A program made the translations under genes and the position numbers. This document shows, piece by piece, positions 28,327-44,680 of a DNA stretch of 64,000 bases. Below the pieces are notes generated by a model, which had not been told where the DNA came from, did not search any database, and saw nothing but the letters and a program-made list of their open reading frames with translations. The DNA lies in assembly GCA_050951605.1 (NCBI GenBank), contig JBMNJJ010000009.1, positions 66,361 through 130,360 on the forward strand, in the 5' to 3' direction. Position 1 is the stretch's first letter. Each line of letters opens with the position of its first letter. Source of the stretch: Peptococcia bacterium (GTDB lineage Bacteria > Bacillota > Peptococcia > DRI-13 > DTU073).

Positions 28327-28342
28327 TGGCATATAAATTGCA
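28327..28342 (+). promoter_or_regulatory. Sigma-54 (-24/-12) promoter
   Basis: TGGCATataaaTTGCA, with GG (28328-9) and GC (28340-1) exactly 12 nt apart; 63 nt upstream of the PHP gene start. Confidence 0.75.
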
Positions 28343-28404
28343 ACTATACTTTTGGCGGAAAGGGATAAGAAAATGGAAGCAGATTAATGGAGGTAAGATA
28401 AAAC

Positions 28405-29292
28405 ATGGCGGTTGATTTACATGTGCATACTACAGCGAGCAGTGACGGTGATTATACTCCTCGCGAGATAGTAGAAATGGCTATTAAGAAAAAGCTGCGG
28501 GCGGTGGCAATTACAGACCATGACTCTGTAGCTGGACTAGAGGAAGGTCTTTACTGGGGGAATAAGCTTGGGTTGGAAGTAATTCCCGGATGTGAATTTT
28601 ATGCACAACATCAGGGAAAATGGCTTCATGTCTTAGGATATTTTATAGATTATAATAGTTTAGAAATAAAAAAATTCAGTAGAAAGATAGCGGAAGAAAG
28701 AAAAAGGACTACAAAAAAACAAATTGAGATATTAAGACAAGCCGGTTTCTTTATAGAGGAAGAAAAAGTTTATGCAGAAAATCCTATGCCCATGTTTCAT
28801 ACTTTTGTTAATGTTATTTTTGCTGATCCAAGGAATAAGCAAAATCCCCTTCTTAAGAAATATCACCGAGTTGATAAAGCTGTGGTCAGGTTCTGTATGG
28901 ATTGGATGATACCTGGGAAACCTTTAAATGCCCCACAATATACCCCACAAGCTAAGGATATTTTTCAATTAATAAAAAGGATAGGGGGTATCCCGGTTTT
29001 AGCACATCCGGCAGCAACATTAAGTGAAGAGGATGACTATGTTATTGATAACTTAATAAATTGTGGTTTAGCAGGTTTAGAGGTTTATACGAGTTGGCAT
29101 AATGAAGAGAACGAGAAACATTATGAACAGTATTTAAGCAAACGGGAACTTATGCTTACTGCCGGTAGTGATTTTCACGGTAGTTTGAAGCCATATGCTA
29201 AACTGGGCGAAATAAAAAATAATACCTATAACCTTGTGGAAAAATTAAAAACATCGGTTTTAACCATAGATAGGCATTGTTCTTGCATGTAA
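28405..29292 (+). CDS. PHP-domain metal-dependent phosphoesterase
   Basis: MAVDLHVHTTASSDG, ITDHDS and LAHP motifs. Confidence 0.8.
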   Translation: MAVDLHVHTTASSDGDYTPREIVEMAIKKKLRAVAITDHDSVAGLEEGLYWGNKLGLEVIPGCEFYAQHQGKWLHVLGYFIDYNSLEIKKFSRKIAEERKRTTKKQIEILRQAGFFIEEEKVYAENPMPMFHTFVNVIFADPRNKQNPLLKKYHRVDKAVVRFCMDWMIPGKPLNAPQYTPQAKDIFQLIKRIGGIPVLAHPAATLSEEDDYVIDNLINCGLAGLEVYTSWHNEENEKHYEQYLSKRELMLTAGSDFHGSLKPYAKLGEIKNNTYNLVEKLKTSVLTIDRHCSCM

Positions 29293-29376
29293 TATATAAC
29301 GGAAACATGAAATGCAGAAACAAGTACTAATTTATATTTAAAACATGTAGAGCAGTTGAAACAGGGAGGAAAGATT

Positions 29377-31104
29377 ATGTTAAAAGGAATTGCGGCATCT
29401 CCCGGGATTGAGTTCGGGAAAGCGTATGTAGTAAAAGAACAGGAAGTCACTATTAATACGAATGTAATAGCGACGGAAAATGTAGTAGGGGAGATCAAAC
29501 GGTTCAATGAAGCGGTAGAAACATCTCGTGCCCAACTGCAAAGAATCAAAGAGAAAGCAGAGAAAGAGTTAGGGGCAGAAAAGGCAGAGATTTTTGCTGC
29601 TCATTTAATGGTTTTAGAAGATGAGGTTTTTCTTGATGAGGTTAGGGAAAAAATCAAAAAGGAATGTTTAACGGCAGAAAATGCTCTTACTCAAGTGGCT
29701 CAAAAATATATAGCTATGTTTGGCGAAATGGAGGACGAATATTTAAGAGAAAGAGCGGCTGATATTAAAGATATTACTGAACGTTTGGTGAAAAACATTC
29801 TCGGTATAGAAATGCGGTCTTTGGCAGACATAGATGAAGAAGTGATAATTTTGGCTAAAGACCTTACCCCTTCTGATACTGCACAGATGAACAAACAGAT
29901 GGTAAAAGCCTTTGCTACGAACATGGGCGGGCGGACTTCTCATACGGCAATTATGGCAAGGTCTTTAGAAATTCCGGCTGTAGTTGGACTTGTAGATGTA
30001 ACAGAAAAGGTTAAAGATGGGGACTTGGTCATTATTGATGGCAATAAGGGGGTTGTTTTATTTAATCCTGATGAAGTGACCCTTAATGAATATAAACAGT
30101 TACAGGAAGAATATAGACAATTTGTTAATGAACTTAAGGAATTAAAAGACAAGCCTTGTGTAACAAAAGATGGTCAGCGTCGTGTGGAACTTGCGGCCAA
30201 TATTGGTACCCCTAAAGATTGTGCGGGAGCTTTGAATAACGGAGCGGAAGGAATTGGTCTTTATCGGACAGAGTTCTTATATATGGACCGTTCTGAACTT
30301 CCTACGGAGGACGAGCAGTTTGAAGCTTATAAAGAAGTGGCTGAAGCAATGGCTCCGCGTCCTGTAATCATTCGGACATTGGATATCGGTGGCGATAAAA
30401 AACTTCCTTATTTAGAGATGCCACAAGAGTTAAATCCTTTCTTAGGGTGGAGAGCGATTAGATTATGCTTAGATCGTCAAGACATTTTAAAGACACAGTT
30501 AAAGGCTATCCTAAGGGCTAGTCATTATGGAAAATTACGGATTATGTATCCGATGATTTCTAATGTGGAAGAAGTACGAAAGGCTAATGCAGTGTTGCAG
30601 GAAGCTAGGGAAGAATTGGACAAAGAGGGTGTACCATATGACCAAAAACTAGAGGTAGGGATTATGGTTGAAATTCCTTCTGCGGCTGTAATTGCTGATA
30701 TTTTAGCCAAGGAAGTAGATTTTTTCAGTATCGGTACAAATGATTTGATTCAATATACGATTGCTGTTGACCGCATGAATGAACATATCTCTCATTTATA
30801 TGAACCACTTCATCCGGCAGTATTAAGGTTAATAAAAAATGTTATTGATGCTTCACATCGTGCCGGGAAATGGACGGGTATGTGTGGAGAAATGGCCGGA
30901 GATATAGTGACAGCCCCGATTTTATTAGGGCTTGGCTTGGATGAGTTTTCGATGAGTGCGGTTTCTATACCCAGAGTTAAGAAAGTTCTTCGTTCTTTAA
31001 CTTTTGCCGAAGCACAAAGTGTGGCTGAAAAAGCTCTTGACATGGAAAGACCTAAAGAAATTAGAGAGTTTGTTAATGCTTTTATCTCTAAGGTTAATAG
31101 TTAA
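29377..31104 (+). CDS. ptsI: PEP-protein phosphotransferase (PTS Enzyme I)
   Basis: GGRTSHTAIMARS (active His), IRTLDIGGDK and GMCGEMAGD. ATG 29377 sits behind the GGGAGGA RBS. Confidence 0.95.
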   Translation: MLKGIAASPGIEFGKAYVVKEQEVTINTNVIATENVVGEIKRFNEAVETSRAQLQRIKEKAEKELGAEKAEIFAAHLMVLEDEVFLDEVREKIKKECLTAENALTQVAQKYIAMFGEMEDEYLRERAADIKDITERLVKNILGIEMRSLADIDEEVIILAKDLTPSDTAQMNKQMVKAFATNMGGRTSHTAIMARSLEIPAVVGLVDVTEKVKDGDLVIIDGNKGVVLFNPDEVTLNEYKQLQEEYRQFVNELKELKDKPCVTKDGQRRVELAANIGTPKDCAGALNNGAEGIGLYRTEFLYMDRSELPTEDEQFEAYKEVAEAMAPRPVIIRTLDIGGDKKLPYLEMPQELNPFLGWRAIRLCLDRQDILKTQLKAILRASHYGKLRIMYPMISNVEEVRKANAVLQEAREELDKEGVPYDQKLEVGIMVEIPSAAVIADILAKEVDFFSIGTNDLIQYTIAVDRMNEHISHLYEPLHPAVLRLIKNVIDASHRAGKWTGMCGEMAGDIVTAPILLGLGLDEFSMSAVSIPRVKKVLRSLTFAEAQSVAEKALDMERPKEIREFVNAFISKVNS

Positions 31105-31197
31105 TTTATAAATTTGTACTCATATTAATGAAAGGAAGTGAGGACACAGGGTTAGTAATGAAGTTGTTATGGCAAACGTTTTAGAAAGGGGGGAGAA

Positions 31198-31704
31198 ATG
31201 ATGGCTGGAGTACAGTTGCACACAGATGTAGATTTAGTGGCATTACCTTATGAAGCAGAAAATAGTGAACAAGTAATTAGAGAGTTAGGAAAAAGAGTAT
31301 TGGCAAAGGGCTATATTGACAAAGAGTTTATTGAAAATCTTTTAGCAAGAGAAAAAGAATTTCCTACAGGATTGGAAACTGTTTATCCTATTGCGATACC
31401 TCATGTAGGTGGGCATTGTCATCAGTCTTTTTTGTCGGTAGCTATTTTAAAAGAACCGGTAACTTTTATGGCTATGGATGGTTCAGGAAAAGAATTAGAT
31501 GTACGTTGTGTGTTTATGTTTGGGATTACTGACCCTCAACATCAGGTAGAAGTTCTGAAAAAGTTTATTTTCGCCTTTAGAGAAGAAGAAAATCTTAAGA
31601 AAATCCAAGAAATGACAGATAAAAAGGAAGCATTAAAATTTCTCAAGTCATTACTTGGTGATGGCTTAGTAGTCAACAATGTAGAAAAGGAGGCGGCTGT
31701 TTAG
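31198..31704 (+). CDS. PTS EIIA component (EIIA-2, Mtl/Fru/Gat type)
   Basis: 168 aa; FPTGLETVYPIAIPHVGG contains the phosphorylatable His. Confidence 0.8.
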   Translation: MMAGVQLHTDVDLVALPYEAENSEQVIRELGKRVLAKGYIDKEFIENLLAREKEFPTGLETVYPIAIPHVGGHCHQSFLSVAILKEPVTFMAMDGSGKELDVRCVFMFGITDPQHQVEVLKKFIFAFREEENLKKIQEMTDKKEALKFLKSLLGDGLVVNNVEKEAAV

Positions 31705-31770
31705 AAAAAGGTGTTGGAGGTGGTTAGAGGCACAGATATATTTTTATAATTCAAAGGAGGAAATGTTAAA

Positions 31771-32076
31771 ATGGTTAGAATAGTAGTTGCTTGTGGTGGT
31801 GGTATTTTTACAACAACAATTGTTTCAGATCAGGTTAAAGAAATATTAAGAAAAGCAGGGATTCAACATACAGTAACTCCGGCAAAGTTAACAGAAATAG
31901 CTGGTATATCTGATGCTGATTTAATCGTTGTTACAGGTAAGTTTGGAACGAAAACTAAAAACGTGGCTAATATTCCGATTATTGTTGGTATGTCTTTGCT
32001 CACAGGTGTTGGTAAAGAAAAGTTTGCGGAAGAACTTGTACAAAAGGCAAAAGAAATTGAGGAGGCTAAAAAATAA
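31771..32076 (+). CDS. PTS EIIB component, galactitol (Gat) family
   Basis: 101 aa; MVRIVVACGGGIFTTT with an N-terminal active-site Cys. Confidence 0.8.
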   Translation: MVRIVVACGGGIFTTTIVSDQVKEILRKAGIQHTVTPAKLTEIAGISDADLIVVTGKFGTKTKNVANIPIIVGMSLLTGVGKEKFAEELVQKAKEIEEAKK

Positions 32077-33523
32077 TGGCAACATTAAAAATGGTCATTG
32101 ACCTTTTTGGTCCGACAATCTTTGTACCGGTAGTTGTTTTTATTTTAAGTTTATGTATGAGAGTTGAACCGAATAAAGCTTTCCGTGGCGCTTTATATAT
32201 GGGTATTGGTTTGACGGCTTTTAATATTATTCTTGGTGGTTTAATGGGATCCTTAGGTCCTATCGTCACCGAGATGGTTCAGAATACCGGGGTTAATCTG
32301 CCTTGTATTGACGTAGGTTGGCCGGCAGCATCAATTATTTGTTATGCTAACCAGATCGGTTTGTTCTTTATTCCTTTCGGTCTTGTTTTTGACTTGGTGC
32401 TTTTTGCTACGAAATGGACGGATACCTTCCATCCTACAGATATTTGGAATTACTATCACTTCGTTTTTTGGGCAGCTATTGTTCAGTTGGTGACAGGCAG
32501 TTTCTGGATGGGCGTACTTTGTGGGATGTTATTGAATCTTATTCTGTTACTGTTGGCTGACTGGATTGCTCCGGCGATGGAATCTTATTACGGTTATCAG
32601 GGTGTAGTTTCTACTTGTTACTGCTCTATTAACAGTGTACCTTTTACTATTTTAATCAAATGGATTTTGAAAAAGTTGAAATTAGATCGGATTACGTTGA
32701 ATCCCGAACAATTGAGAGAAAAATTTGGTTTCTGGGGTGAACCTGTCACGATAGGTCTTTTAATCGGTTTAGCCGTATCGCTGATTGCTAAATGGCAGTT
32801 CCTCGGTGAACTGGAAAGCTGGGCAACCGTCTTAAAGACCGCAATTGTTACAGGTGCGGTTATGGCTATTTATCCTTCTGTTTCCGGTCTTTTTGTGAAA
32901 GGACTTATTCCGATTACACAGACTTTAAATGCACGAATGAGAAGCGGGGAAATGACCAGAAAGAATATGTATATAGCTATTGACCCTGCTGTTTTCTTTG
33001 GTGAAGAAGCGACAATTGCTACAGGTCTGGTTTTAATTCCGATTATGTTGGCTTTTGCGATTCTTTTGCCCAGTAATATTGTTTTACCACTGGCAGACTT
33101 GCCGGCGATACCTTTCTGCTGTGATCGGTATAGTTACAGTTATGCAGGGTAATGTTTTTGGTTCGTTGATTACAGGAGCTTTATGGATAGGTTTAGGTTT
33201 TATGGCTAACTCTGATATTGCGGTTGTTTTTACCGAAGCGGCGAAGAACGTTAACGCTATTCCTGAATCTGCTGGTCAAGCTTTAGTTACTTGTTTTCTT
33301 GTCGGTAATAATATCTTTGGGTTGGTTGGTTTACAAAGCCTTTGCTGCTTCTGAAGGGATAAGAGTCTTTACAATTGGTCTTGCTTTTGCTTGTTATCTC
33401 GTTGTGTATGTTCTTCTTCCAAAAATACCGCAAGCTTGGCAGTTAGCTGCGGGAGCAACGGAAGAATATTTTGAAGAAAAAGAAGCTCTTTGGAAAGAGA
33501 TGGCAGGAAAAGCGAGCAGCTAG
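32076..33523 (+). pseudogene. PTS EIIC, galactitol (GatC) family, broken by two +1 frameshifts
   Basis: Three overlapping ORFs (32076..33152, 33055..33354, 33299..33523) form one polytopic EIIC. The junctions are at ~33113..33118 (T-run) and the T4 run at 33294..33297. Confidence 0.75.
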
Positions 33524-33713
33524 AAAGGCTTAATTATAATTAAGATTACAAGATGGTAAGAATGCGTAAGAGAGTGAGGATTGCTTATTAAAACAGGGAT
33601 GACCGGGGTTACCTTCTTTAGTAAATTGACTGGCAATCCCGGTTCCCTTTCCCTTAAGGAAATAATTAAGATAAAAAGTTTATTAAAAAACATTAAAAAA
33701 GGAGTAGAAAATC

Positions 33714-34750
33714 ATGAAAAAGACGAACACTTTAGTTACAGCAGCTTTCAGTGAAAAAGGAATTAATGATTTAAAAGAATTTTTAAATGTGGAGTATCAC
33801 AATTGGTTTAAACAGAAACGTCCTTATACGCAGGAAGAGTTAAATAAGATGTTGCAAGGTAAAGAAATTTTGATTGTAGAAATGACCGAAGTGCATAAGG
33901 AAGTAATTGAAGCCAATCCTCAACTTAAAGTAATTGCTTGCTGTCGTGGTTTAAGGGGCGATGATCCGACGATAGATATTCCTACCTGTAATGAACGTAA
34001 AATTCCTGTTTTATTAGCTCCCGGCAGAAACTTGAATTCCGTAGCTGAGTTTACCATACTGTTAACGTTAGCGATTATGAGAAAAGTACGCCCCGCGATC
34101 AATTGGTTTTATGATAGACAATTGGCAAGAAGTGGCTTGATTTTTATACAACCTTTAGAACCGGCGAAGTTAGAGGTAGGACTGTAGGCTTGATGGGTTT
34201 TGGTAATATCGGGAAAAGAGTTGCGGCATTATTTAATGCTTTTGGAGCGAAAGTAATTGCTTATGACCCTTTTATTAATGACCTAGAAGTTTATAAGAAG
34301 TTTAATGCGGAAAAAGTTGATGCGGAAACTCTTTTTAAGACGGCAGATATTGTTTCCTTGCATATGAATGTTAATGAAGATACGAAAGGATTTATCAACG
34401 AAAAATTAATCGGTTTAATGAAGCCTACTGCATTTCTAATTAACTCTGCTCGTGCTGCTTTAGTTGAACGGGATGCTCTTTATGCGGCTTTGAAGGACAA
34501 AAAGATTGCCGGATATGCAACTGACGTATATCATCAAGAACCTTGTAATCCGGAAATTGAACCCATGCTGCTTTTAGATAACTTCTTTGGTACACCTCAT
34601 CTCGGTGGTACTGCAGATGAAGTTATTAGCAATCATTCCGCCATGGTAGTTAATGACCTGAAAAAGCTATTAAATGGTGAAAACCCTCAATTTATTGTTA
34701 ATCCTCAGGTGTTACCTGATTTCCAAGAAATCTTAAAAACCATGAAATAG
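33714..34750 (+). pseudogene. D-isomer-specific 2-hydroxyacid dehydrogenase, split by a frameshift
   Basis: ORFs 33714..34187 and 34190..34750. The second frame is open back to ~34117 (TIGKKWLDFYTTFRTGEVRGRTVGLMGFGNIGKRVA). Motifs GFGNIG, NSARAALV and TPHLGG are present. Confidence 0.75.
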
Positions 34751-34765
34751 GGTTTTGGAAGGCGT

Positions 34766-35245
34766 GTGAAGATATTGGAAAATAATTCTGAACAGAGAGC
34801 TGAAATTATCGAGAAGTGTGTTCAATATTTTGATGATGGTTATGGGTTTGCTTGTATCGAATCTGTTGTCTTGGGCTATAAGGATTATTTTGGAATAAAG
34901 GATGAGATAATTCCCAAAATAGCTACTCCTTTTGGTGGTGGTATAGCCGGCAACGGTCTTACCTGTGGTGCTTTGCAGGGAGCGATTATGTGCTTGGGGT
35001 TAAAATATGGTCGTACTGATAGTAAAACTGACCGTAAAGTTCTTTATCAAAAGGTAAATAATCTTTTACGAAAGTTTAAGGATTACTATGGTACCTTGGA
35101 TTGTGGCGGTATCAGAATGATACCGCCTCTGCTCCAAAGTGATCCTGTCAAATTAAAACGGATTAAAGACTGCTATCATGAAAATGTGTGCAATGATTTA
35201 GTGAGAAATGTAGCCGGCTGGTTAGCAGAAGAATTGGAAATATAA
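34766..35245 (+). CDS. C_GCAxxG_C_C family putative redox-active protein
   Basis: FACIESV ... GLTCGALQGAIMCLG ... GTLDCG; 159 aa. Confidence 0.75.
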   Translation: MKILENNSEQRAEIIEKCVQYFDDGYGFACIESVVLGYKDYFGIKDEIIPKIATPFGGGIAGNGLTCGALQGAIMCLGLKYGRTDSKTDRKVLYQKVNNLLRKFKDYYGTLDCGGIRMIPPLLQSDPVKLKRIKDCYHENVCNDLVRNVAGWLAEELEI

Positions 35246-35313
35246 TTTAGTATAATGAACGTAATAAAATTGGCACCATGTTGAAAAGAGAATTTTAAGG
35301 AGGAGAAAGAAAA

Positions 35314-35574
35314 ATGTTAGTTGAAGATTTTGTTATTCAAAACAAAACCGGATTGCATGCTCGACCCGCATCCTTATTCGTAAAAAAAGCCAGTAGCTTT
35401 AAGTGTAAAATTAAGATTAAAAAAGATGATACGGAAGTAGATGCTAAAAGTATGTTGTCTGTCCTCACACTTGGTGCAGGACAAGGTTCTACGATTACTA
35501 TCACCACCGATGGTGAAGATGAAAAAGAAGCGTTACAAGAACTGATTAAACTTTTACAGGAAACTAAAGAGTAA
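35314..35574 (+). CDS. ptsH: Phosphocarrier protein HPr (copy 1)
   Basis: NKTGLHARPASLFV (His15) and DAKSMLSVLTLG (Ser46 region); 86 aa. Confidence 0.9.
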   Translation: MLVEDFVIQNKTGLHARPASLFVKKASSFKCKIKIKKDDTEVDAKSMLSVLTLGAGQGSTITITTDGEDEKEALQELIKLLQETKE

Positions 35575-35612
35575 GAAAAGACTTAAATTAGTTTTTAAGG
35601 GGAGTACAAGCT

Positions 35613-37326: not shown

Positions 37327-37433
37327 AATATTGATAAGAATTTTTTTTGGTTTATGATATATATAGAACAAGAAATAAATAAAAATTACACAAATATAGA
37401 AGGTGTAAATTCTTAGGGAAACAAAATGGGGAT

Positions 37434-38432
37434 GTGAGAATAATGGATGCAGAAGTATATAATCAATCTACTTTTATCATACTAAAAGCAGCATATCTAT
37501 ATTATCTTAAGGATAAGGCACAAAATGAAATAGCAGATATTTTAAATATCTCTGTCCCCACTGTTTCCCGCTTAATTAAAAAAGCAAAAGAAGAAAAAAT
37601 AGTAGAGTTTGTGATTAGGGATCCATACTTAGAATGTATAGATCTTGAAGAAAATTTAAAAAAAGAATTTAAACTAAAAGATGTCGTAATTGCTCCCCTT
37701 GCTGTACAAGAGTCTTCTCAAAATGATATGGAAGAGAACCTGAAAAAGTTGGTTGCTTTAGAAGGAGCACGTTATTTACAACGTATCATTACGGAAGAAG
37801 ATGTTTTAGGTATTAGTTGGGGACAAACAATGTATCATTTGATTCACTATCTTAATCCATGCCAGAAAGTGAATGGGAAGTTTGTAACTATGCATGGCAG
37901 TATTTCTAGCCTTAAGCCTGACCTTGATGTAAGAACATTAGTGTCTAGGACAAGTATGGTTTTTGGTGGCAAAAACTATTCTCTGATGGCAGAGGCTTTA
38001 TTAAGTAATGCAGAAACAGCCGCATCAATAAAGAAGGAAAAACATGTAAAAAAGGTATATGAAATGTTTGATAAAATAACAATTTCGATTAGTGGTATGG
38101 GTTCCTTTTTCCCTCAACTTGATTCTTTATTATGCAAATCCGATTATTTAACCGCAGAAGAAATTAACACTTTACAGAAGAATAATGTTGTCGGTGATAT
38201 TGTGTTGCGGTTTTTTGATAAAAATGGTCAAGAATGTGCTACTAATTTCCGAGATAGAACGATAGGTATTGAGCTGGAGCAGTTTAAACAGATTAAGACT
38301 AAGATTTCTGTTGTTTCAGGTGAAGTAAAGACACATACAGTGCTTGCTGCTTTAAAAGGCGGTTTTGTAGATGTTTTAATCACTGATTATAACTTAGTCA
38401 AGTCTATTTTAAAGCTTAATGCAAGTAAATAA
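37434..38432 (+). CDS. SorC/DeoR-type sugar-binding transcriptional regulator
   Basis: N-terminal HTH (QNEIADILNISVPTVSRLIKKAKEEKIV) plus a C-terminal sugar-phosphate-binding domain (GISWGQT..., GDIVLRFFD). Confidence 0.8.
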   Translation: MRIMDAEVYNQSTFIILKAAYLYYLKDKAQNEIADILNISVPTVSRLIKKAKEEKIVEFVIRDPYLECIDLEENLKKEFKLKDVVIAPLAVQESSQNDMEENLKKLVALEGARYLQRIITEEDVLGISWGQTMYHLIHYLNPCQKVNGKFVTMHGSISSLKPDLDVRTLVSRTSMVFGGKNYSLMAEALLSNAETAASIKKEKHVKKVYEMFDKITISISGMGSFFPQLDSLLCKSDYLTAEEINTLQKNNVVGDIVLRFFDKNGQECATNFRDRTIGIELEQFKQIKTKISVVSGEVKTHTVLAALKGGFVDVLITDYNLVKSILKLNASK

Positions 38433-38447
38433 TCTTTGTTGCTAAGT

Positions 38448-38473
38448 TTTTGGCTAAGGGCCCAGCCAAAAAT
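38448..38473. terminator. Terminator hairpin after the sorC-type gene
   Basis: tttttggct / agccaaaaa 9-bp stem with an 8-nt loop. Confidence 0.6.
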
Positions 38474-38528
38474 CTAGATATGTATCCACTTACATTTAGG
38501 CATTTAAAAAAACAAGGAGGTTGTAAAA

Positions 38529-39845
38529 ATGTACGTTGATCCTATTTTTATGCAGTTTGCTGATGGTATTGACAAAGAAAAGTTTATGATTGCTACCTAT
38601 TATGTACAAACCCATCGTAATGCTGAAGCAGTAAAATATGCCTGTGCACTTGCTGTTGAGCAAACTACAGGTACGTGGATTGCAGTTCCCGGTGAGACTG
38701 CGGAAGTTAGAGAAAAACATCTGGGTCGGGTAGTAGGGCTTTATGAAATCCCCGCTTATATTAGCGAAATGCCGGAAACTGTAAAAGAAAGACAGTATCT
38801 TATCAGGATTGCCTTCCCCGTTTTGAATATGGGACCACACTTTGCTACGATGTTGACGACCATTTTAGGGAACGTTTCTTATATGGGTCATTTAAAATTA
38901 ATGGATATTGAATTACCGGAAAGTTATTTGAAACAATTTAAGGGTCCTAAATTTGGTATTCAGGGAATCAGAGACCTTTTGGGCGTTCAGGACAGACCTC
39001 TTGTCAATAACATGATTAAACCTTGTACAGGATTAACTCCAAAACAGACAGCGGAACTTGCTTATGATGTAGCTCTGGGCGGCGTTGATATCATTAAAGA
39101 TGACGAATTGACTGCTGATCAGCCTTATTGTCCCTTGATTGACAGGGTTAAAGAAGTAATGAAAGCTCTGAAAGCTGCCGATGCGGAAAAAGGCGAAACG
39201 ACACTTTATACTTTTAATGTTACTGGACCGGTTGCTACCTTGAGAGATAGAGCACTTCGTGCCGTTGAAGCAGGTGCTAATGCTTTAATGGTTAATACGT
39301 GGACAATGGGTCTTGATGCTGTTAAAATGCTGGCTGATGATCCTGATATCAATGTTCCGATTCTTTCACATCCGGATTTACAGGGTGCGATGGCTGTTTC
39401 CCATTATTCAGGAATGTCCGTTAATCTTGCGAATGCTAAGTTCCCGCGTTTAGCCGGTATGGACATGGCTATCATCTTAAGCCCATACGGCAAGTTCCCC
39501 TTCACCATGGATGCGTTTATTAGCAATATGTTTGCTATGCTCACTCCTTGGAAAAACATTAAACCTATGATGCCTATGCCTGGTGGCGGAACTACACAAG
39601 GTCATATTGAAGAATTAATAGGCAATTTTGGTAAAGATATTATCATTGCTGCCGGTGGCGCTGTAATTGGTCACCCCATGGGAACAATTGCCGGTGGTAA
39701 AGCCTTTAGACAAGGTATCGATGCTGTCATGAAGGGTGCTACTTTAAGAGAAGCTTGCGAAGACCCTGCAAACAAAGAATTAAAAGCAGCTATTGATGCT
39801 TGGGGCGTTTATGGTGAAAAGACCATCTTTGACCTAAAAAGCTAA
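38529..39845 (+). CDS. RuBisCO large-subunit family protein, form IV (RuBisCO-like protein, RLP)
   Basis: 438 aa; GPKFGIQGIRDLLG, RPLVNNMIKPCTGL, ALGGVDIIKDDE, SHPDLQGAM (in place of HRAMH), and AAGGAVIGHPMG. Confidence 0.85.
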   Translation: MYVDPIFMQFADGIDKEKFMIATYYVQTHRNAEAVKYACALAVEQTTGTWIAVPGETAEVREKHLGRVVGLYEIPAYISEMPETVKERQYLIRIAFPVLNMGPHFATMLTTILGNVSYMGHLKLMDIELPESYLKQFKGPKFGIQGIRDLLGVQDRPLVNNMIKPCTGLTPKQTAELAYDVALGGVDIIKDDELTADQPYCPLIDRVKEVMKALKAADAEKGETTLYTFNVTGPVATLRDRALRAVEAGANALMVNTWTMGLDAVKMLADDPDINVPILSHPDLQGAMAVSHYSGMSVNLANAKFPRLAGMDMAIILSPYGKFPFTMDAFISNMFAMLTPWKNIKPMMPMPGGGTTQGHIEELIGNFGKDIIIAAGGAVIGHPMGTIAGGKAFRQGIDAVMKGATLREACEDPANKELKAAIDAWGVYGEKTIFDLKS

Positions 39846-39927
39846 GTTAATTTAATCTATATGTAGTACAATTCATAGCAATAAATAAAGTATAATTTGT
39901 AGCAGTAATTGTAGATAGGTATTTGAA

Positions 39928-39962
39928 CGAAGAGCTGAGCTTATAAAAAACTCAGCTCTTCG
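39928..39962 (+). terminator. Rho-independent terminator after the RLP gene
   Basis: cgaagagctgag / ctcagctcttcg perfect 12-bp stem. Confidence 0.8.
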
Positions 39963-40098
39963 CTTTCCTTAAAAAATATGATAAAAACGGAAGAAAAGTG
40001 AAAGAAAGGGCATTGGATTTTGGCTGGATTTTATATTATAATACGATTATAATAATTTAACAAAAGTATAAACAATATTTAGACAAAGGGGCGGTAAA

Positions 40099-40750
40099 GT
40101 GTTATTGGAAAAACAAAGAAGCAAGTTAATTAGTTTTATGTTGAAGGCCCAAGAAATGGGTTTAGTTCCTTTAACTTTTGGGAACTTTAGTTTACGGGAC
40201 AAAGATACCGGCTATGTATGTATTACACCTAGTGGTATGGAATATCAAGCTTTAAAACCTGAGGATATTGTGGTTGTAGATGTGAATGGGAAAGTTATCG
40301 AGGGAAAAAGGAAATATTCTATTGAAACTCCGATGCATTGTCTTATTTACAGAAAACGTGCTGATGTTTTTGGTGTTTGTCATACTCATTCTAGCTTTTG
40401 CTACCGCTTGGGCTGCAACAGATTTACAATTGCCGGTAGTTGTAGCGGAATTAGCTGCACTTGTGGGGGGGAATATTGAGACGGCCCCATATGAACAGAT
40501 GGGTTCAGTTGAATTGGCTAAAGTTGTTACAGAAACTTTAAAAGATAAAGATGCAGTGCTCATGGCTAATCATGGTCTTTTGGCAGTTGGACCTGACCTG
40601 GAGACCGCTTTTGCGAATGCGGTGATCGTCGAAGAAGGGGCTAAAGTGGCTTGTTATGCTCAAAGTATAGGAAAACTCCGGGCGATGCCGGAAGAAGATT
40701 GCCGAGGTTTACGTCAATGGGTTATAGAAAAATATGGGCAGCAAGAGTAA
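40099..40750 (+). pseudogene. Class II aldolase/adducin family protein (FucA/AraD-like), +1 frameshift
   Basis: FGNFSLRD, ITPSG and VCHTHSSF in ORF 40099..40479, continuing ATAWAATDLQLPVV...MANHGLLAVG in ORF 40286..40750. Deleting one T from the T4 run at 40396..40399 restores HTHSSFATAWA. Confidence 0.8.
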
Positions 40751-40798
40751 GAAATAGTTAATTAAGAAAAGGAAAGCGTGGTTAGGAGGTGATAAAAG

Positions 40799-43700
40799 GT
40801 GCAAGAAAAATTGTTAAAAATTATTGAGCAGGAAGATAAAAAGAATCCCCTTACAGATGAACAGTGTGCTAAAAGGTTGTTTTTAAACAGAAGTGAAGTA
40901 ACACAACTGAGACAAGCTTTAGGTATTCCTGATTCTCGAGAAAGAAGAAAACCGTTATTAGAAGAGGAAATAAAAGAAATTATGAAGAAAGATGCTACTA
41001 TTTCTGAACGAAATTTAACAGCGGAAATTAAAAAAAGAGGATTTATTCTTTCCCGTTATACTGTGGCGAAGATTTTAAAAGAGTTAAAACTTGAGACCGG
41101 AAAGCAGAATAAGGAGATCCGGGTAGAAGAACAGCCAAAAGAAACACAGGAAAAACGTGAAGCACAAGAACAGCAGGAAGAACAGGAAGACCAAGCGGAA
41201 CAGCAAAAAAATAAAATAAATGATCGTCCTGACCCTTTTGCTATTATGATTGGTTGGAATATGAGTTTGCGTGTTAAGGTGGAACAAGCTAAAGCAGCGG
41301 TGCTATATCCACCGTATGGTTTGCATACTTTGATTGTGGGAGCTACAGGTGTAGGTAAAAGTGTCATGGCCGAATGTATGTATAAATTTGCTTTGAAGAC
41401 GAAAAAGCTCGAGGCAAGTCAGTTCCCTTTTATTATCTTTAATTGTGCAGACTATGCGGAAAACCCTCAGCTTCTTTTAGCACAGCTTTTTGGTTATAAA
41501 AAAGGAGCATTTACCGGCGCTGAAAAAGATCGAGACGGTTTAGTAGCTAAAGCTGATGGAGGAATTCTCTTTTTGGATGAGGTGCATCGCTTACCTCCTG
41601 ATGGGCAGGAAATTCTGTTTCAACTTATTGATAAAGGTAAGTATAGGCGCTTAGGAGAAACCGATATTGTTCATGATGCTCAAGTAATGATTATTGCGGC
41701 AACTACTGAGGATATTGAAAAAAGCTTATTAGCTACTTTCAGGCGGAGAATTCCGATGATTATAGAACTCCCTCCTTTAAATAAGCGACCGGTAGAAGAG
41801 AGATTGGGTATTATTAAAATGTTTTTTCAGCAAGAAGCGGCAAGAATTAATAAACAAATAATTGTTGGTTATAATGCTTTGCGGACTTTGCTGATTTATA
41901 ATTGTGTGGGAAATATTGGACAGCTTCGTTCTGATATTCAGGTAGCTTGTGCGCGCGGTTTTTTGGCTTATGTGGCTAAAGGAAGTCAACAGGAGGTTAT
42001 CTCTGTTGATTTTGAGGAATTACCCGTTCATGCTACTAAGGATTTACTGAATACCCGGTGGGACAGGGCAGAAGTGGAAAAAATAATCTCAGAGGAATTG
42101 ATTTTTATTCCGGGTTTAGCTGAACCGGAGTCGGAATTAGAAGAAAGTTTATATATTTTTCCGAATGATATTTATAAAAACATTGAAGAACAGTATCAGG
42201 AATTACAAAAACATGGTTTGTCCGATGAAGTAATTAATCGGATTATTGGCGATGAACTTGAAGCGCGCGTAAAAAAGATTATTAAACAAGTGGAAAAGAA
42301 TAAACATAAATTTGTACGCGAAGATTTAAAAACGATAGTTCGACCTGAAGTCGTGGAATTAGTTCAGGAAATGGTCAAAAAAGCTAAATCTCTCCTAGGA
42401 GAGATTGATGATACACTTTTTTACTGTTTGGCAACACATCTTAATGCTACTGTAGAAAGAATAAAGAGTGGAAAAAGTATTACTAATCCGCAGTTAGACA
42501 GTGTTAAAAAAAATTATAACAAAGAGTTTAAAATTGCCACAGAAATGGCTTCTTTGACTAGTTTTTATTTGGGAATAGATTTGCCGGAAGAAGAAATTGG
42601 CTTTATTGCGATGTATTTGAGAACTTTGGCTAATAAAAATGTTGACCCTCAAAATACGATTGGTATCGTTGTGGTAACTCATGGTCATGTAGCAGAAGGA
42701 ATGGCCAATGTGGCTAATCGTCTTTTAGGAGTGAATCATGTCCAAGCAGTAGAAATGTCTCTTGATGAAAAACCTGAATCTGCATATCAAAAAACCTTAG
42801 ATACAGTGATTAAAGCGAACCGAGGTAAAGGGGTTCTCATTTTAGTAGATATGGGTTCTTTATCGAGTTTTGGTAATTTTATAACACAAAAGACAGGGAT
42901 TATGACTAGAACTGTGACAAGAGTTGATACCTTGATGGTTATTGACGCTGTGCGTAAAGTACTTTTACCTGAGGCCGATATTGATGAAGTGGCTACATCT
43001 TTAATTAGAGGAAAAACAGTTAAAACTTATCCTTATGAGGATGTAGCTCCTTTAACTACTGACAACATGGCAATTATTAGTTTATGTTTGACGGGTGAAG
43101 GTACTGCTAGACATATCGATAAGTTGATTAAAAATGAGGTTCATAAAATAAATGAGAAAATAAAAATAGTTACACTGGGGGTCTTGGATGATCGTGACGT
43201 ACTAGAACAAATAGATAGAATACGTCACAATATGAACGTTTTAGCGATAGTTGGTACCGTTAATCCGGAACATCCCGAAATACCCTTTATTTCTTCTGCC
43301 GATGTGATTAAAGGAGTAGGGTTAAAGAAACTTTTGAAAATTGTGAGAATAAAATGTGATGAAAGTAATCCCTTGACCTTTAAAGAAGCCTTGAACGCTG
43401 TTTTTAGTAAAGATTTTATTTTGGTAGGGCAGGAGGTACGCAATAAATTTGAAGCGATTAAAATACTTACAGACATTTTAGTAAATAAGGGTTGTGTTTC
43501 TCCTAGCTTCATTACCGGTGTTTTAGAAAGGGAAGAGATGGGTTCAACGGCGCTTGGAACTTCTATAGCGATACCTCATGGTTATGGTGAGGATATTATT
43601 TTCCCAGCAGTAGCAATAATGACTTTAAAAAAACCGGTGGAGTGGTATGAAGGGATTAAAGTTTCTTTAGTTTTTCTTTTAGCTCTTAATGAAAGTTCAA

Positions 43701-43810
43701 AAGATGAGTTCAAGCGTGTGTATAAGATTATTAGGAACCAATATATTGCCGAAGAATTAAAGAAAGCTCAAGATGCTGAAGAAGTGTTAGCTATTTTAGA
43801 AAGTATTTAG
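40799..43810 (+). CDS. Sigma-54-dependent, PTS-controlled transcriptional activator (LevR-like)
   Basis: 1003 aa. By eye: HTH; Glu/Gln-rich linker; AAA+ (GATGVGKS, GAFTGA, FLDEVHRL); a PRD; EIIA-Man-like (VVVTHGHVAEG); EIIB-Gat-like (SLCLTGEGTA); C-terminal EIIA-2 (IAIPHGYG). Confidence 0.85.
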   Translation: MQEKLLKIIEQEDKKNPLTDEQCAKRLFLNRSEVTQLRQALGIPDSRERRKPLLEEEIKEIMKKDATISERNLTAEIKKRGFILSRYTVAKILKELKLETGKQNKEIRVEEQPKETQEKREAQEQQEEQEDQAEQQKNKINDRPDPFAIMIGWNMSLRVKVEQAKAAVLYPPYGLHTLIVGATGVGKSVMAECMYKFALKTKKLEASQFPFIIFNCADYAENPQLLLAQLFGYKKGAFTGAEKDRDGLVAKADGGILFLDEVHRLPPDGQEILFQLIDKGKYRRLGETDIVHDAQVMIIAATTEDIEKSLLATFRRRIPMIIELPPLNKRPVEERLGIIKMFFQQEAARINKQIIVGYNALRTLLIYNCVGNIGQLRSDIQVACARGFLAYVAKGSQQEVISVDFEELPVHATKDLLNTRWDRAEVEKIISEELIFIPGLAEPESELEESLYIFPNDIYKNIEEQYQELQKHGLSDEVINRIIGDELEARVKKIIKQVEKNKHKFVREDLKTIVRPEVVELVQEMVKKAKSLLGEIDDTLFYCLATHLNATVERIKSGKSITNPQLDSVKKNYNKEFKIATEMASLTSFYLGIDLPEEEIGFIAMYLRTLANKNVDPQNTIGIVVVTHGHVAEGMANVANRLLGVNHVQAVEMSLDEKPESAYQKTLDTVIKANRGKGVLILVDMGSLSSFGNFITQKTGIMTRTVTRVDTLMVIDAVRKVLLPEADIDEVATSLIRGKTVKTYPYEDVAPLTTDNMAIISLCLTGEGTARHIDKLIKNEVHKINEKIKIVTLGVLDDRDVLEQIDRIRHNMNVLAIVGTVNPEHPEIPFISSADVIKGVGLKKLLKIVRIKCDESNPLTFKEALNAVFSKDFILVGQEVRNKFEAIKILTDILVNKGCVSPSFITGVLEREEMGSTALGTSIAIPHGYGEDIIFPAVAIMTLKKPVEWYEGIKVSLVFLLALNESSKDEFKRVYKIIRNQYIAEELKKAQDAEEVLAILESI

Positions 43811-43851
43811 AAATAAATTTGCCAACAAAATTTTTAAGGAGGATTATGGTT

Positions 43852-44382
43852 ATGAAAAAATGGATGGAAGAAAGTGTAATTAGGGGTGTAGAGATGATGG
43901 CTATTGCGGCCAAGACTGCTCCGAAGTCTAAAGGTGATGACTTTGTCGGTATAAAAATTATTACCGGCGATGAAATAACAGTATTAGCCGATGCTATGGT
44001 CAAGTATGGTGAGGATAATCAGAAAAGAAATTATGATCGTGATGGGGAAAATGTAAGAAATTCCAGTGCAGTATTATTACTTTCTTTAGAGGACCCTAAA
44101 GTGACAGGGTTAAATTGTGGTGCTTGTGGTGTTAATCGTTGTGCAGATTTAAAAACTGTGGAAGGTGAAGAGTTTGCGGGTCCTCTTTGTGCTTGGCGAC
44201 TTTTAGATTTAGGGGTGGCCTTAGGTTCTGCTGTAAAAACAGCTAGTATTTTGAATTTAGATAATCGGATTATGTATCGTGTTGGTGCTGTAGCACGGAA
44301 AATAGGAATGATGCAAGGACCGATTGTGGTAGGAATTCCAGTTTCTGCCCAGGGTAAAAGTATTTATTTTGATAGAAAATAA
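43852..44382 (+). CDS. DUF2148-like ferredoxin-domain protein
   Basis: AAKTAPKSKG and LNCGACGVNRC...PLCAWRLLDLG motifs. The start is probably ATG 43852, behind AAGGAGG. Confidence 0.6.
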   Translation: MKKWMEESVIRGVEMMAIAAKTAPKSKGDDFVGIKIITGDEITVLADAMVKYGEDNQKRNYDRDGENVRNSSAVLLLSLEDPKVTGLNCGACGVNRCADLKTVEGEEFAGPLCAWRLLDLGVALGSAVKTASILNLDNRIMYRVGAVARKIGMMQGPIVVGIPVSAQGKSIYFDRK

Positions 44383-44416
44383 GGAAAGAAGATAGTGGCT
44401 TGCTAGGGAGGTTAAA

Positions 44417-44680
44417 ATGATTATTAGACAGGTTAAATTTATGAACGAATCAGGTCTTCATGCTCGTCCTGCAGCGGTTTTCGTTGACCTAGCAAGTAGA
44501 TTTAAAGCATCTATTTTTGTGGAAAAGGGAGAACATAGTTATAACGGGAAAAGTATTGTTTCTATTCTTTCTGCGGGGATTGGCAAGGGAGATAAAGTAA
44601 ATTTAATTATTGAAGGTGAGGATGAGGAATTAGCCGATGAGCTTTTACTCTCCTTAATTAAAAATAATTTTTCCGAGTAA
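44417..44680 (+). CDS. HPr family phosphocarrier protein (copy 2)
   Basis: NESGLHARPAAVFV (His15) and NGKSIVSILSAG (Ser46 region); 87 aa. Confidence 0.85.
   Translation: MIIRQVKFMNESGLHARPAAVFVDLASRFKASIFVEKGEHSYNGKSIVSILSAGIGKGDKVNLIIEGEDEELADELLLSLIKNNFSE

Follow-up and report, generated by a model that had tools for sequence, protein, structure and literature searches.

A RuBisCO-like protein within a Gat-family PTS gene cluster of a Peptococcia bacterium and its possible part in polyol breakdown

What does a RuBisCO-like protein (RLP) do inside a sugar-uptake cluster of the PTS? This question is raised by a gene block at 28405–44680 of the window, the whole 64,000-nucleotide stretch of Peptococcia DNA analysed here. 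Pfam searches recovered, all on the forward strand, every gene listed by a first-pass annotation and in the order it had given, but it had been overlooked that three genes are frame-broken, those for EIIC, a D-2-hydroxyacid dehydrogenase (2-HADH) and a class II aldolase-family enzyme. The block stands as a real observation, with gene content, promoter, terminator and RLP motifs all confirmed, while its interpretation as a whole is partly supported. We put at about even the chance that the block functions as a cluster for carbohydrate utilisation, its substrate probably being a polyol, through a PTS–dehydrogenase–RLP–aldolase route.

The block opens with a PHP-family phosphoesterase (28405–29292; PF02811, E = 2e-15), whose best NCBIfam match, 3',5'-nucleoside bisphosphate phosphatase, reaches 118 bits, far under the 400-bit cut-off. 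The PTS genes follow, encoding a cluster-specific Enzyme I (EI, ptsI; 29356–31104; PEP-utilisers_N, PEP-utilizers and PEP-utilizers_C, E = 3.5e-130), an EIIA (PTS_EIIA_2; 31198–31704; PF00359, E = 1.7e-28), an EIIB of the PTS_IIB fold with Cys8 within MVRIVVACGGG (31771–32076; PF02302, E = 3e-10) and the frame-broken Gat-family EIIC (32076–33523; PF03611, EIIC-GAT, E = 5e-67). Two HPr copies (PF00381; 35314–35574, E = 3.9e-32; 44417–44680, E = 8.4e-25) both possess His15 and Ser46. The split 2-HADH (33714–34750; PF00389 and PF02826) resembles PGDH and glyoxylate reductase in Pfam and NCBIfam. The aldolase-family enzyme (40099–40750; Aldolase_II, PF00596, matching both pieces) gives its best NCBIfam scores, both below cut-off, with L-ribulose-5-P 4-epimerase (199 of 251 bits) and fuculose-P aldolase (184 of 264). 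The succession of EIIA-2, EIIB, EIIC-GAT and a dehydrogenase is shared with galactitol (gat) and pentitol Gat-family PTS operons, and sister clusters even carry a GatD-like Zn-ADH. Unlike gat operons, however, the cluster has its own EI and HPr, is under sigma-54/LevR control, contains an inserted RLP and SorC regulator, and is without tagatose-bisphosphate aldolase or kinase. Moreover, its EIIC scores 303 bits against the galactitol equivalog TIGR00827, below the 542-bit cut-off.

The control region agrees with the earlier description. The sigma-54 (-24/-12) promoter TGGCATATAAATTGCA (28327–28342, forward strand) is the only exact match to TGGCAY-N5-TTGCW across the 64 kb, and related loci (L004, L005, L007, L008, L009, L011 and L012) have corresponding sites ahead of PHP, EI or EIIA. 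The sequence GTGGCAGATATTGTTT (28223–28238, forward strand), which precedes the -24 element by about 104 bp, may tentatively be regarded as a LevR activator site; it is the sole exact match in the window, with 0.28 expected at one mismatch or fewer. In related loci, too, GTGGCAG-type motifs precede the sigma-54 sites, the one in L012 being a perfect palindrome. The LevR-like sigma-54 enhancer-binding protein (40799–43810) is composed of Sigma54_activat, PRD, EIIA-man and C-terminal EIIA-2 domains, its AAA+ domain containing GAFTGA. The Gat-family PTS, equipped with its own EI and HPr, is accompanied by both an activator of the LevR type and a -24/-12 promoter. At the other end, the strong terminator (44709–44760, forward strand) is formed by a long GC-rich hairpin (44709–44755) and a T-run; its fold has an energy of -35.3 kcal/mol (z = -9.08), matched by none of 200 shuffles. 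A degenerate sigma-54-like site with one mismatch, AGGCATTGTTCTTGCA (29272–29287, forward strand), is located 84 bp upstream of ptsI, and an exact TGGCATGGTTCTTGCA occupies the matching position relative to EI in L012. Because of this second site, and because SorC–RLP is the universally conserved pair among the loci compared, the block probably comprises more than one transcription unit. Just upstream of the block are genes for YeeE, a TusA-like protein and a class V aminotransferase, and a further terminator (27656–27684) sits between these sulfur genes and the block.

The frame breaks bear on whether the cluster works at all. In the window, EIIC is interrupted into three pieces (32076–33152, 33055–33354 and 33299–33523), and 2-HADH and the aldolase into two each, as might be expected if the genes were the remains of a cluster in decay, or had come together by accident, with no working pathway in the host. 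The aldolase is broken in L001 as well, a JGI contig of the same MAG that is 99.9% identical to the window. Nevertheless, the two assemblies differ at the interrupted sites only: all 17 indel positions fall inside stretches of EIIC, 2-HADH and the aldolase, five of them in the 3' part of EIIC. In L001, EIIC (484 aa) and 2-HADH (344 aa) are both uninterrupted, the latter in the frame of its orthologues in L003, L006 and L012; compared with L001, the window's 2-HADH, split at 34187/34190, shows two additional G, one at 34117 and one at 34129. The aldolase frame is broken by one extra base near 40393, and the gene is intact (216 aa) in L002, a 98.75% identical contig. Since near-identical assemblies carry the genes intact, the breaks are probably assembly indels. 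Together with a gene order kept across families and classes, this leaves decay or accident as a very unlikely explanation.

The RLP itself (38529–39845, forward strand; RuBisCO_large and RuBisCO_large_N, PF00016 and PF02788) is of form IV. Its motifs GGVDIIKDDE, IKPCTGL and SHPDLQGAM are all present, and alignment to form I RuBisCO verified that they map to K201/D203/E204, K177 and H294–H298. The clade keeps RuBisCO residues E60, T65, W66, N123, K175, K201, D203, E204, H294 and K334, along with G380, G381, G403 and G404, and lacks R295, H298 and H327 of the second phosphate site, a pattern that holds in 77–80 of the 80 clade members; K177 is replaced by Cys. Judged from these residues, the protein cannot bind RuBP, in line with the earlier reading that it is not a carboxylase. 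A neighbour-joining tree places it in a large uncharacterised clade that is sister to MtnW/YkrW and does not group tightly with it.

MtnW/YkrW (2,3-diketo-5-methylthiopentyl-1-phosphate enolase of Bacillus and Geobacillus; PDB 2oek and 2zvi) provides the nearest structures and curated model at 36–38% identity, 2oek being the closest PDB match (E = 4e-80). The two proteins share K175, K201, D203, E204 and H294, the loss of R295, H298 and H327, and a monophosphate-type site. In contrast to MtnW, the cluster RLP keeps E60 and K334, has Cys at K177, and carries Asn (RuBisCO N123) at the position of the catalytic Lys98, as do 79 of the 80 clade members. It scores below the cut-offs of both MtnW NCBIfam models (369 against 409 bits; 310 against 514) and stands outside any mtnK, mtnA, mtnX or mtnD context. 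The two missed cut-offs, the Asn and the separate clade led us to reject its identification as MtnW.

These relationships also bear on a methionine-salvage-like module for a thio-sugar or deoxy-sugar, in which the aldolase-family protein would dehydrate a ketose 1-phosphate (MtnB-like), the RLP enolise the diketone (MtnW-like), PHP strip the phosphate (MtnX-like) and the thiol proteins handle a sulfur leaving group. Such a module would fit the nearness of MtnW, the aldolase-family/RLP/phosphatase trio, which mirrors mtnB-mtnW-mtnX of a Priestia plasmid operon, and the sulfur-related genes within and just upstream of the block. We consider it very improbable given the Lys98 replacement and the MtnW scores, an aldolase score of 76 bits against the 137-bit MtnB cut-off, the absence of mtnK, mtnA and mtnD from all of the 80+ loci, and the terminator parting the upstream sulfur genes from the block. 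Nor do the thiol proteins track the cluster. The CoA-disulfide reductase-like flavoprotein–rhodanese fusion (CoADR–rhodanese; 35613–37265; Pyr_redox_2, Pyr_redox_dim and Rhodanese; 504 bits against the 579-bit TIGR03385 cut-off) occurs in two loci only, L001 on the window's contig and L003, and is missing from the otherwise syntenic L012; it is a lineage-specific insertion outside the conserved core. The C_GCAxxG_C_C protein (34766–35245; PF09719, E = 1.6e-25) is limited to four loci (L001, L003, L006 and L012), and the DUF2148 ferredoxin-domain protein (43819–44382; PF09918, E = 3e-30) always lies beside LevR and the second HPr (L001, L003, L004, L005, L007 and L012), not with the enzymes. 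The thiol proteins do not belong to the core, and the earlier hint of a sulfur-containing substrate or redox gating is not supported, as CoADR–rhodanese occurs in just two loci.

Loci were grouped by RLP identity into those of at least 65% (n = 13, PTS-type), 54–65% (n = 28, kinase-type) and 40–54% (n = 36). EIIC-Gat and SorC are present in all 13 PTS-type loci, EI in 10, PHP in nine (and in 7/28 kinase-type loci), the LevR-like activator in seven and the aldolase in five, the last being missing from Propionispira and several others. The SorC/DeoR-type sugar-phosphate-binding regulator (37434–38432; Sugar-bind, PF04198, E = 2.5e-62) lies next to the RLP in all 13 close loci and in 24 of the 28 at middle distance. 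The full cluster is kept in L003 and L012, and with its variants (L004–L011, L045, L051, L079 and L082–L084) it spans Peptococcia, Anaerovoracaceae, Propionispira and Veillonellaceae. The neighbourhood, with its recurring sigma-54 sites, is therefore conserved rather than accidental. In the 54–65% class, none of the 28 loci has a PTS, 13 have an FGGY kinase and 11 a UPF0261 protein; at 40–54%, FGGY is found in 21 of 36. The neighbouring FGGY kinases are xylulokinase-like, and for UPF0261, kinase activity has been proven in one member, MarK (PMC12624787). As these more distant relatives bear a kinase in the same place, for instance L085 with its order SorC–PHP–aldolase II–FGGY–RLP, the PTS does replace it, and the gene contents show it to be interchangeable with FGGY or UPF0261 kinases, directly supporting the proposal that the PTS stands in for the kinase.

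Across closely related RLPs, the dehydrogenase slot is filled by three unrelated families (2-HADH, Zn-ADH and GlpABC-like), and kinase-type loci contain glycerol-3-P-oxidase-like and glycerol-1-P-dehydrogenase-like genes. These enzymes oxidise the carbon adjacent to CH2-O-P, which supports the polyol route. In kinase-type relatives, an FGGY kinase occurs together with a FAD dehydrogenase that is GlpA/GlpD-like and with a SorC regulator. The erythritol (ery) operon of Brucella and Rhizobium likewise encodes the FGGY kinase EryA, the GlpD-like dehydrogenase EryB and the SorC regulator EryD, followed by isomerases. Compared by gene description, both suggest a course from polyol to polyol phosphate, ketose 1-phosphate and isomerisation, with the difference that the RLP would replace the isomerase/racemase set (EryC, TpiA2 and RpiB).

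The dehydrogenase of the window itself, being of the PGDH/glyoxylate-reductase-like D-2-hydroxyacid type, normally needs a carboxylate, and an acid sugar would fit it better than a polyol. In a route akin to L-ascorbate/ketogulonate (Ula/Sgb) catabolism, the PTS would deliver a phospho-aldonate or keto-aldonate, 2-HADH would interconvert hydroxy and keto acid, the RLP would act as a beta-keto-acid decarboxylase like the apiose-pathway RLP OiaX, and the aldolase-family protein would be a UlaF/AraD-like epimerase. SgaT/UlaA also fall under Pfam EIIC-GAT, yet the EIIC matched only the GatC model in the NCBIfam search, with no UlaA match. L-ribulose-5-P 4-epimerase is the aldolase's top match, although the enzyme has Glu (SIETPMH) where AraD-type epimerases have Asp. 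RLPs linked to DUF1537 kinases (acid-sugar, D-apiose; OiaX type) likewise adjoin a substrate-phosphorylating enzyme in catabolic clusters and keep E60, N123 and K334, residues that handle the CO2-derived carboxylate in RuBisCO. They form a separate clade at ~35% identity, however, and retain R295 and H327, both lost here, with Ser rather than Cys at K177; phosphorylation is by DUF1537 instead of a PTS, and the OiaX model gives 198 bits against a 700-bit cut-off. In L085 (SorC–PHP–aldolase II–FGGY–RLP), a biotin-type decarboxylase gene set adjoins the RLP, in keeping with an acid substrate, whereas RLPs 78–81% identical have as neighbours Zn-ADH or GlpABC-like dehydrogenases, of kinds that typically act on polyol phosphates. 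On balance, we regard the acid-sugar route as unlikely.

The polyol route, with a C4–C5 polyol as the favoured substrate, would proceed in an order inferred for the RLP clade from genomic context. The PTS would import a polyol-like substrate and phosphorylate it at a terminal carbon, and the dehydrogenase, here the PGDH-like 2-HADH and in sister clusters Zn-ADH or a GlpABC-like flavoenzyme, would oxidise the neighbouring hydroxyl to give a ketose 1-phosphate. To our knowledge, all characterised RuBisCO-superfamily substrates carry a C1-phosphate beside a C2 carbonyl. The RLP would bind the ketose 1-phosphate through its retained P1 site and carbamate–Mg2+ centre and form a 2,3-enediolate as RuBisCO does; reprotonation would then move the carbonyl or invert C3, with the conserved Cys166 possibly serving as second acid/base. 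A comparable reaction is known from the Rhodospirillum rubrum RLP, which isomerises a ribulose 1-phosphate derivative with migration of its carbonyl (PMC6302742). That enzyme (5-methylthioribulose-1-phosphate 1,3-isomerase; PDB 3qfw) resembles the cluster RLP in the proposed ketose 1-phosphate enolisation and carbonyl migration, but is far more distant (E = 1e-41 against 4e-80 for MtnW) and serves MTA metabolism rather than a PTS/SorC sugar cluster. The class II aldolase would cleave the RLP product into DHAP and an aldehyde, whereas in aldolase-less clusters the product would pass straight into the pentose-phosphate pathway. SorC would sense a sugar phosphate, and PHP would act as an accessory phosphatase.

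Several observations weaken this polyol route in addition to the nature of the dehydrogenase. E60, N123 and K334 are retained although unneeded for simple isomerisation, the aldolase is absent from several PTS-type clusters, and three genes are frame-broken in the window. Moreover, the EIIC paired with 2-HADH (~480 aa) and that paired with Zn-ADH (~420 aa) are only ~31% identical, so the two types may carry different substrates. A literature search found no published description of a PTS-fed RLP cluster or pathway, consistent with the novelty suggested at first sight. The cluster points to an undescribed route of sugar-alcohol breakdown in anaerobic bacteria.

Pfam recovered all genes named in the first-pass annotation, each on the plus strand and in the listed order, between positions 28405 and 44680. 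The block starts with a PHP gene, followed by EI, EIIA-2, EIIB, EIIC-GAT, a D-2-hydroxyacid dehydrogenase (2-HADH, 33714-34750), a C_GCAxxG_C_C protein, HPr, and a pyridine-nucleotide-disulfide reductase fused to rhodanese (CoADR-rhodanese, 35613-37265). It continues with a SorC regulator, the RuBisCO-like protein (RLP, 38529-39845) with its large-subunit N and C domains, a class II aldolase, a sigma-54 activator of 1003 aa that contains PRD, EIIA-Man, and EIIA-2 domains (Pfam), a DUF2148 protein, and a second HPr. The base composition of the window is uniform, with a low GC content of ~37%. Exact matches to the RLP sequence come from a JGI metagenome contig of 609 kb and an NCBI MAG that bears the label Peptococcia bacterium.

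The sole exact consensus match to a sigma-54 -24/-12 site in the 64 kb, TGGCATATAAATTGCA, is located at 28327-28342 on the plus strand. In seven of the 13 loci with the closest RLPs (at least 65% identity), promoter sites of this type likewise precede PHP, EI, or EIIA. The sequence AGGCATTGTTCTTGCA before ptsI is a one-mismatch sigma-54 site in the window, and an exact site occupies the same place in L012, one of the loci with a related RLP. An inverted-repeat search upstream of the 28327 promoter gave nothing useful, and the GTGGCAG motif is at best a weak candidate for an upstream element. At 50122-50158, another one-mismatch sigma-54-like site, TAGCACAAAGATTGCA, is separated by 6 bp from an opposite-strand GTGGCAG...TGTTT motif that also has one mismatch; this pairing is probably due to chance. 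Divergent from the 28327 promoter is the gene of a small Cupin_2 protein (27716-28066, minus strand), and L012 has a 79% identical copy at the corresponding place; the cupins include MtnD of methionine salvage.

A strong terminator at 27656-27684, bidirectional over 27652-27688, closes the unit preceding the block, and the block itself ends at a hairpin (44709-44755) followed by a T-run (-35.3 kcal/mol, z = -9). The terminator scan missed this hairpin at 44.7 kb because its stem is bulged, and RNA folding confirmed it. An Rfam scan of 27.5-45.5 kb returned sub-threshold chance matches only, with no riboswitch or RAT in the 190-bp gap between EIIC and 2-HADH or in the 254-bp gap between the RLP and aldolase genes. 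One sub-threshold match, to Vibrio RNA AS7 (35632-35800, minus strand, inside the CoADR gene), scored 40.6 bits (gathering score, 90) and is taken as chance. Past the terminator, Tad/Flp pilus genes (TadZ-like, T2SSE ATPase, two T2SSF, and Flp) occupy 44886-~50500. Such genes also lie 3' of the cluster in L003, L007, and L012, so the chromosomal location of the cluster is conserved in these Peptococcia even though its PTS and dehydrogenase modules differ.

Three genes of the block are split in the window, a feature overlooked by the first-pass annotation: EIIC into three ORFs, and 2-HADH and the aldolase into two each. L001, the JGI copy of the contig, is 99.9% identical to the window over 21.3 kb, differing at 17 indel positions and by 4 substitutions, most of the differences being a single G or C inserted in the window. 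All 21 differences fall into three short stretches (32678-33668, 34117-34129, and 40099-40606), which lie within the three genes and the spacer between EIIC and 2-HADH. This clustering is unlike random sequencing error and suggests polishing differences or strain heterogeneity. EIIC (484 aa) and 2-HADH (344 aa) are intact in L001, and across the 2-HADH indels the L001 frame gives the sequence conserved in L003, L006, and L012. The aldolase, which has one extra base near 40393 in the window, is also broken in L001 and is intact (216 aa) in L002, a 98.75% identical contig from another sample. We read the frame breaks as probable assembly or polishing errors, and regard real gene decay in this strain as the less likely reading.

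The RLP matches PF02788 (E = 4e-8) and PF00016 (E = 9e-49), and 99 RuBisCO/RLP sequences in the PDB match it at E <= 1e-10. Its nearest solved structures are the MtnW enolases 2oek (E = 4e-80) and 2zvi, followed by the Chlorobium RLP and form III RuBisCOs. For alignment, 80 RLPs from related loci were combined with Cupriavidus necator pHG1 form I, a plasmid MtnW within a complete mtn operon (Priestia), four DUF1537-linked RLPs, and a purple-sulfur-bacterium RLP. K190, D192, and E193 of the window RLP align with K201, D203, and E204 of the C. necator enzyme and are kept in 80/80 clade members. In spinach RuBisCO numbering, E60, T65, W66, N123, K175, K201, D203, E204, H294, K334, G380, G381, G403, and G404 are retained, and the substitutions are T173 to Met, K177 to Cys, R295 to Pro, H298 to Gln, H327 to Ile, and S379 to Gly. 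The alignment with form I RuBisCO and the 80 RLPs thus bears out the earlier statements that the KDDE motif is kept, that Cys occupies the K177 position, and that SHPDLQGAM replaces HRAMH. Substitution of residues essential for RuBP carboxylation, which sets form IV apart from forms I-III, places the window RLP in form IV. The signature E-T-W-N-M-K-C-K-D-E-H...K is found in 77 to 80 of the 80 clade sequences.

Neighbour joining, with form I as the root, groups the 80 RLPs in a single clade, sister to MtnW, and leaves the photo-type and DUF1537-type RLPs outside it; the tree was built without bootstrap, so this topology is indicative only. The window RLP misses the curated cut-offs of both MtnW models (NF007095, 369 vs 409; TIGR03332, 310 vs 514). 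The catalytic general base of MtnW, Lys98 of 2oek (FGKLS, G. kaustophilus numbering), aligns with Asn115 of the window RLP (LGNVS) in the HMMER alignment, and Asn is found here in 79/80 clade members. MtnW carries G/K/S at positions 60/123/334, whereas the window RLP has E60, N123, and K334. By its scores, by Asn115, and by its separate clade, the RLP does not group tightly with MtnW, in line with the first-pass view of a candidate undescribed pathway. The gene context differs as well, since the Priestia operon carries mtn genes around MtnW, whereas no mtnK, mtnA, mtnB, mtnX, or mtnD was found in the window block or the related loci. The DUF1537-linked RLPs keep R295 and H327, both lost in the window RLP, which belongs to a separate clade. 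No DUF1537 four-carbon acid sugar kinase gene lies beside the window RLP, which scores 198 with NF042437 (cut-off 700), the model of the 3-oxo-isoapionate-4-P decarboxylase OiaX. With 1667 proteins found at E <= 0.001 in the first homology search, the clade is large, and the family spans Firmicutes, Chloroflexi, Acidobacteriota, Bathyarchaeia, and Lokiarchaeota.

Related loci were collected from a one-genome-per-species scan (79 loci) and three metagenomic look-ups (5 loci), and were scored by tblastn with the window proteins and by clustering of all neighbouring ORFs. In all 13 loci whose RLP is at least 65% identical to that of the window, both EIIC-Gat and SorC are present and neither FGGY nor UPF0261 is found. 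The neighbourhood is therefore conserved rather than accidental. These loci come from taxa including Peptococcia, Clostridiales DTU073, Anaerovoracaceae, Propionispira arboris, P. raffinosivorans, and a Veillonellaceae MAG, and also contain EI (10/13), PHP (9/13), the LevR-like activator (7/13), and the aldolase (5/13). The whole gene order of the window is repeated in L003 and in L012, in the latter without CoADR-rhodanese. At 54-65% RLP identity (28 loci, mostly from gut and digester Firmicutes), EIIC-Gat is absent, and FGGY is present in 13 loci, UPF0261 in 11, and SorC in 24. At 40-54% (36 loci, including Bathyarchaeia, Chloroflexi, and Lokiarchaeota), the corresponding counts are 4 for EIIC-Gat, 21 for FGGY, 4 for UPF0261, and 3 for SorC. 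This last group contains four or five independent PTS-linked cases (L045, L051, L060, L079, and possibly L048).

The exchange is seen in L085, whose order SorC-PHP-class II aldolase-FGGY-RLP is the window core with a kinase instead of the PTS. MarK, a member of UPF0261, has been experimentally shown to be a kinase (PMC12624787). Non-orthologous replacement across the RLP family supports the earlier proposal that the PTS delivers the phosphorylated substrate supplied elsewhere by a kinase. A PEP-hydrolase-like gene stands on either side of UPF0261, and the resulting triplet, an unstudied feeder module, lies directly 3' of the RLP in L014, L016, L017, L020, L021, L027, L029, L043, L049, L052, L056, and L058. 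L043, L049, and L052 add a gene of the ComB-like 2-phosphosulfolactate-phosphatase type, identified by eye only. Two RLP paralogues of the clade occur within 6-8 kb of each other, each near a SorC gene, in L033 and L034 (both Caproiciproducens) and in L085/L086, and a class V aminotransferase gene adjoins the second copy in L085. Directly downstream of the L085 RLP (10694-15331) are genes for a carboxyltransferase, OAD gamma, a biotin carrier, OAD beta, and an HMGL-like/PYC_OADA protein. They look like a Na+-pumping biotin decarboxylase set, and may point to chemistry on carboxylates in this form of the cluster.

The PTS of the window belongs to the Gat family, as all three components are matched (EIIA-2, PF00359; EIIB, PF02302; EIIC-GAT, PF03611). 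Cys8 of EIIB is read from the sequence, and His15 and Ser46 are present in both HPr copies. The galactitol-specific level of GatC is not reached, the intact L001 EIIC scoring 303 with TIGR00827 against a cut-off of 542. The activator is of the LevR type, with PF00158 AAA+, GAFTGA, PRD, EIIA-man, and EIIA-2; it departs from canonical LevR, which has a second PRD in place of the C-terminal EIIA-2. SorC matches the PF04198 Sugar-bind domain (E = 2.5e-62) and N-terminal HTH models, as expected for a SorC/DeoR-type regulator, and scores 232 bits with the B. subtilis DeoR model (cut-off 420). SorC may act as a sugar-phosphate-sensing repressor of the RLP part, while control of the PTS part would fall to LevR and sigma-54. 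The second HPr and DUF2148, always beside LevR, may serve the phosphorylation of its PRD/EIIA domains. A role in AI-2 metabolism (LsrK/LsrR-like) for the FGGY, SorC, and RLP combination was considered and set aside as a leading idea: SorC scores 232 bits with DeoR vs 130 with LsrR, and the XylB scores of the FGGY kinases exceed their AI-2 kinase scores.

The thiol and sulfur proteins had been taken as a hint of a sulfur-containing substrate, which finds no support here. CoADR-rhodanese is confined, among the related loci, to the window's contig and L003, and is missing from L012, which is otherwise fully syntenic and has an 81% identical RLP. C_GCAxxG_C_C is limited to four loci of the 2-HADH type, and DUF2148 occurs in six loci, always adjoining LevR/HPr2. 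Given this patchy distribution, the three proteins were judged not to be core components. Immediately upstream of the block, and set off from it by the terminator, are genes (25017-27653) for a class V aminotransferase (minus strand), a sulfur-transport protein of the YeeE/YedE type, and a TusA-like Se/S carrier. In L004 and L007, which belong to the same class, the cluster likewise comes after YeeE/TusA genes, an arrangement that shared chromosomal position explains as well as function does. A redox input to the regulation of the cluster could still be accommodated.

The gene following EIIC varies among RLPs that are 66-83% identical to one another. It is a PGDH-like 2-HADH in L001, L003, L006, and L012 (and in the distant L051), a GatD/threonine-dehydrogenase-like Zn-ADH in L004, L005, L007, L009-L011, and L082, and a GlpA/GlpB/GlpC-like flavin/iron-sulfur set in L008 and L084. 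These types are interleaved in the RLP tree, which suggests that the RLP function is constant and the feeder changes. The kinase-type loci contain glycerol-3-phosphate-oxidase-like and glycerol-1-phosphate-dehydrogenase-like genes together with xylulokinase-like FGGY kinases. Glycerol-phosphate dehydrogenases and PGDH oxidise the hydroxyl on the carbon adjoining CH2-O-phosphate. To our knowledge, every characterised substrate of the RuBisCO superfamily is a C1-phosphate/C2-carbonyl compound (RuBP, DK-MTP-1-P, methylthioribulose-1-P, and 3-oxo-isoapionate-4-P). From the feeder chemistry and this rule, we infer that the substrate of the RLP is a ketose 1-phosphate derived from a polyol phosphate made by the PTS or a kinase. 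A substrate with one phosphate would agree with the loss of R295, H298, and H327. In addition, Asn at position 123, instead of the Lys of MtnW, suggests that the carbamate takes the C3 proton, as in RuBisCO, and speaks against MtnW-style deprotonation at C1.

Starting from the observed gene content, promoter, terminator, conservation, kinase/PTS interchange, and active-site signature, we propose a polyol route, to which we give about an even chance. The PTS would convert a polyol into its phosphate, and the dehydrogenase would oxidise this to a ketose 1-phosphate. The RLP would then form the 2,3-enediolate and reprotonate it to the C3 epimer or a carbonyl-shifted isomer, a reaction type known for the R. 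rubrum RLP (PMC6302742). The class II aldolase would cleave the product into DHAP and an aldehyde, and in clusters without aldolase the product may pass straight into the pentose-phosphate pathway. Loci that unite an FGGY kinase, a GlpD-like dehydrogenase, and SorC are reminiscent of the Brucella erythritol operon, and by this analogy C4-C5 polyols would be the favoured substrates.

Several points weaken the polyol route. 2-Hydroxyacid dehydrogenases usually require a carboxylate, 8/13 close loci have no aldolase, PHP is fitted to no step, and E60, N123, and K334 are more than an isomerase needs. These points keep two other readings alive. One is an acid-sugar/decarboxylase route, in which the dehydrogenase would have its carboxylate; we consider it unlikely. 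The other, which we hold to be quite unlikely, is that, instead of simply isomerising a ketose monophosphate, the clade makes or breaks a C-C bond in it by a new reaction, for example carboxylation, decarboxylation, or hydrolytic cleavage. It is suggested by the retention of E60, N123, and K334, which in RuBisCO position and stabilise the CO2-derived carboxylate, together with the loss of the second phosphate site. If true, it would represent a RuBisCO-like cleavage route for polyols in anaerobes, fed by PTS or kinases.

RLP catabolic clusters adjoining a dedicated kinase are already known, as are Gat-family PTS operons under sigma-54/LevR control. The literature searched, which left many subscription papers outside, contained no description of this RLP clade or of a PTS-fed RLP. 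As far as we know, RLPs are the sole non-carboxylating branch of the RuBisCO superfamily, with few known reactions. The RLP clade defined here is large, is marked by a sharp residue signature, and recurs very consistently beside SorC, a phosphorylating device, and a dehydrogenase, often with PHP and class II aldolase; this context makes its function directly testable. Cultured carriers exist for both the PTS type (Propionispira arboris and P. raffinosivorans) and the kinase type (Eubacterium barkeri, Enterocloster aldenensis, Pseudoramibacter, and Caproiciproducens). Solving the function would add an RLP reaction and an unrecognised route of polyol/sugar fermentation in gut and digester anaerobes, and would inform which catalytic residues predate carboxylation in the evolution of RuBisCO.
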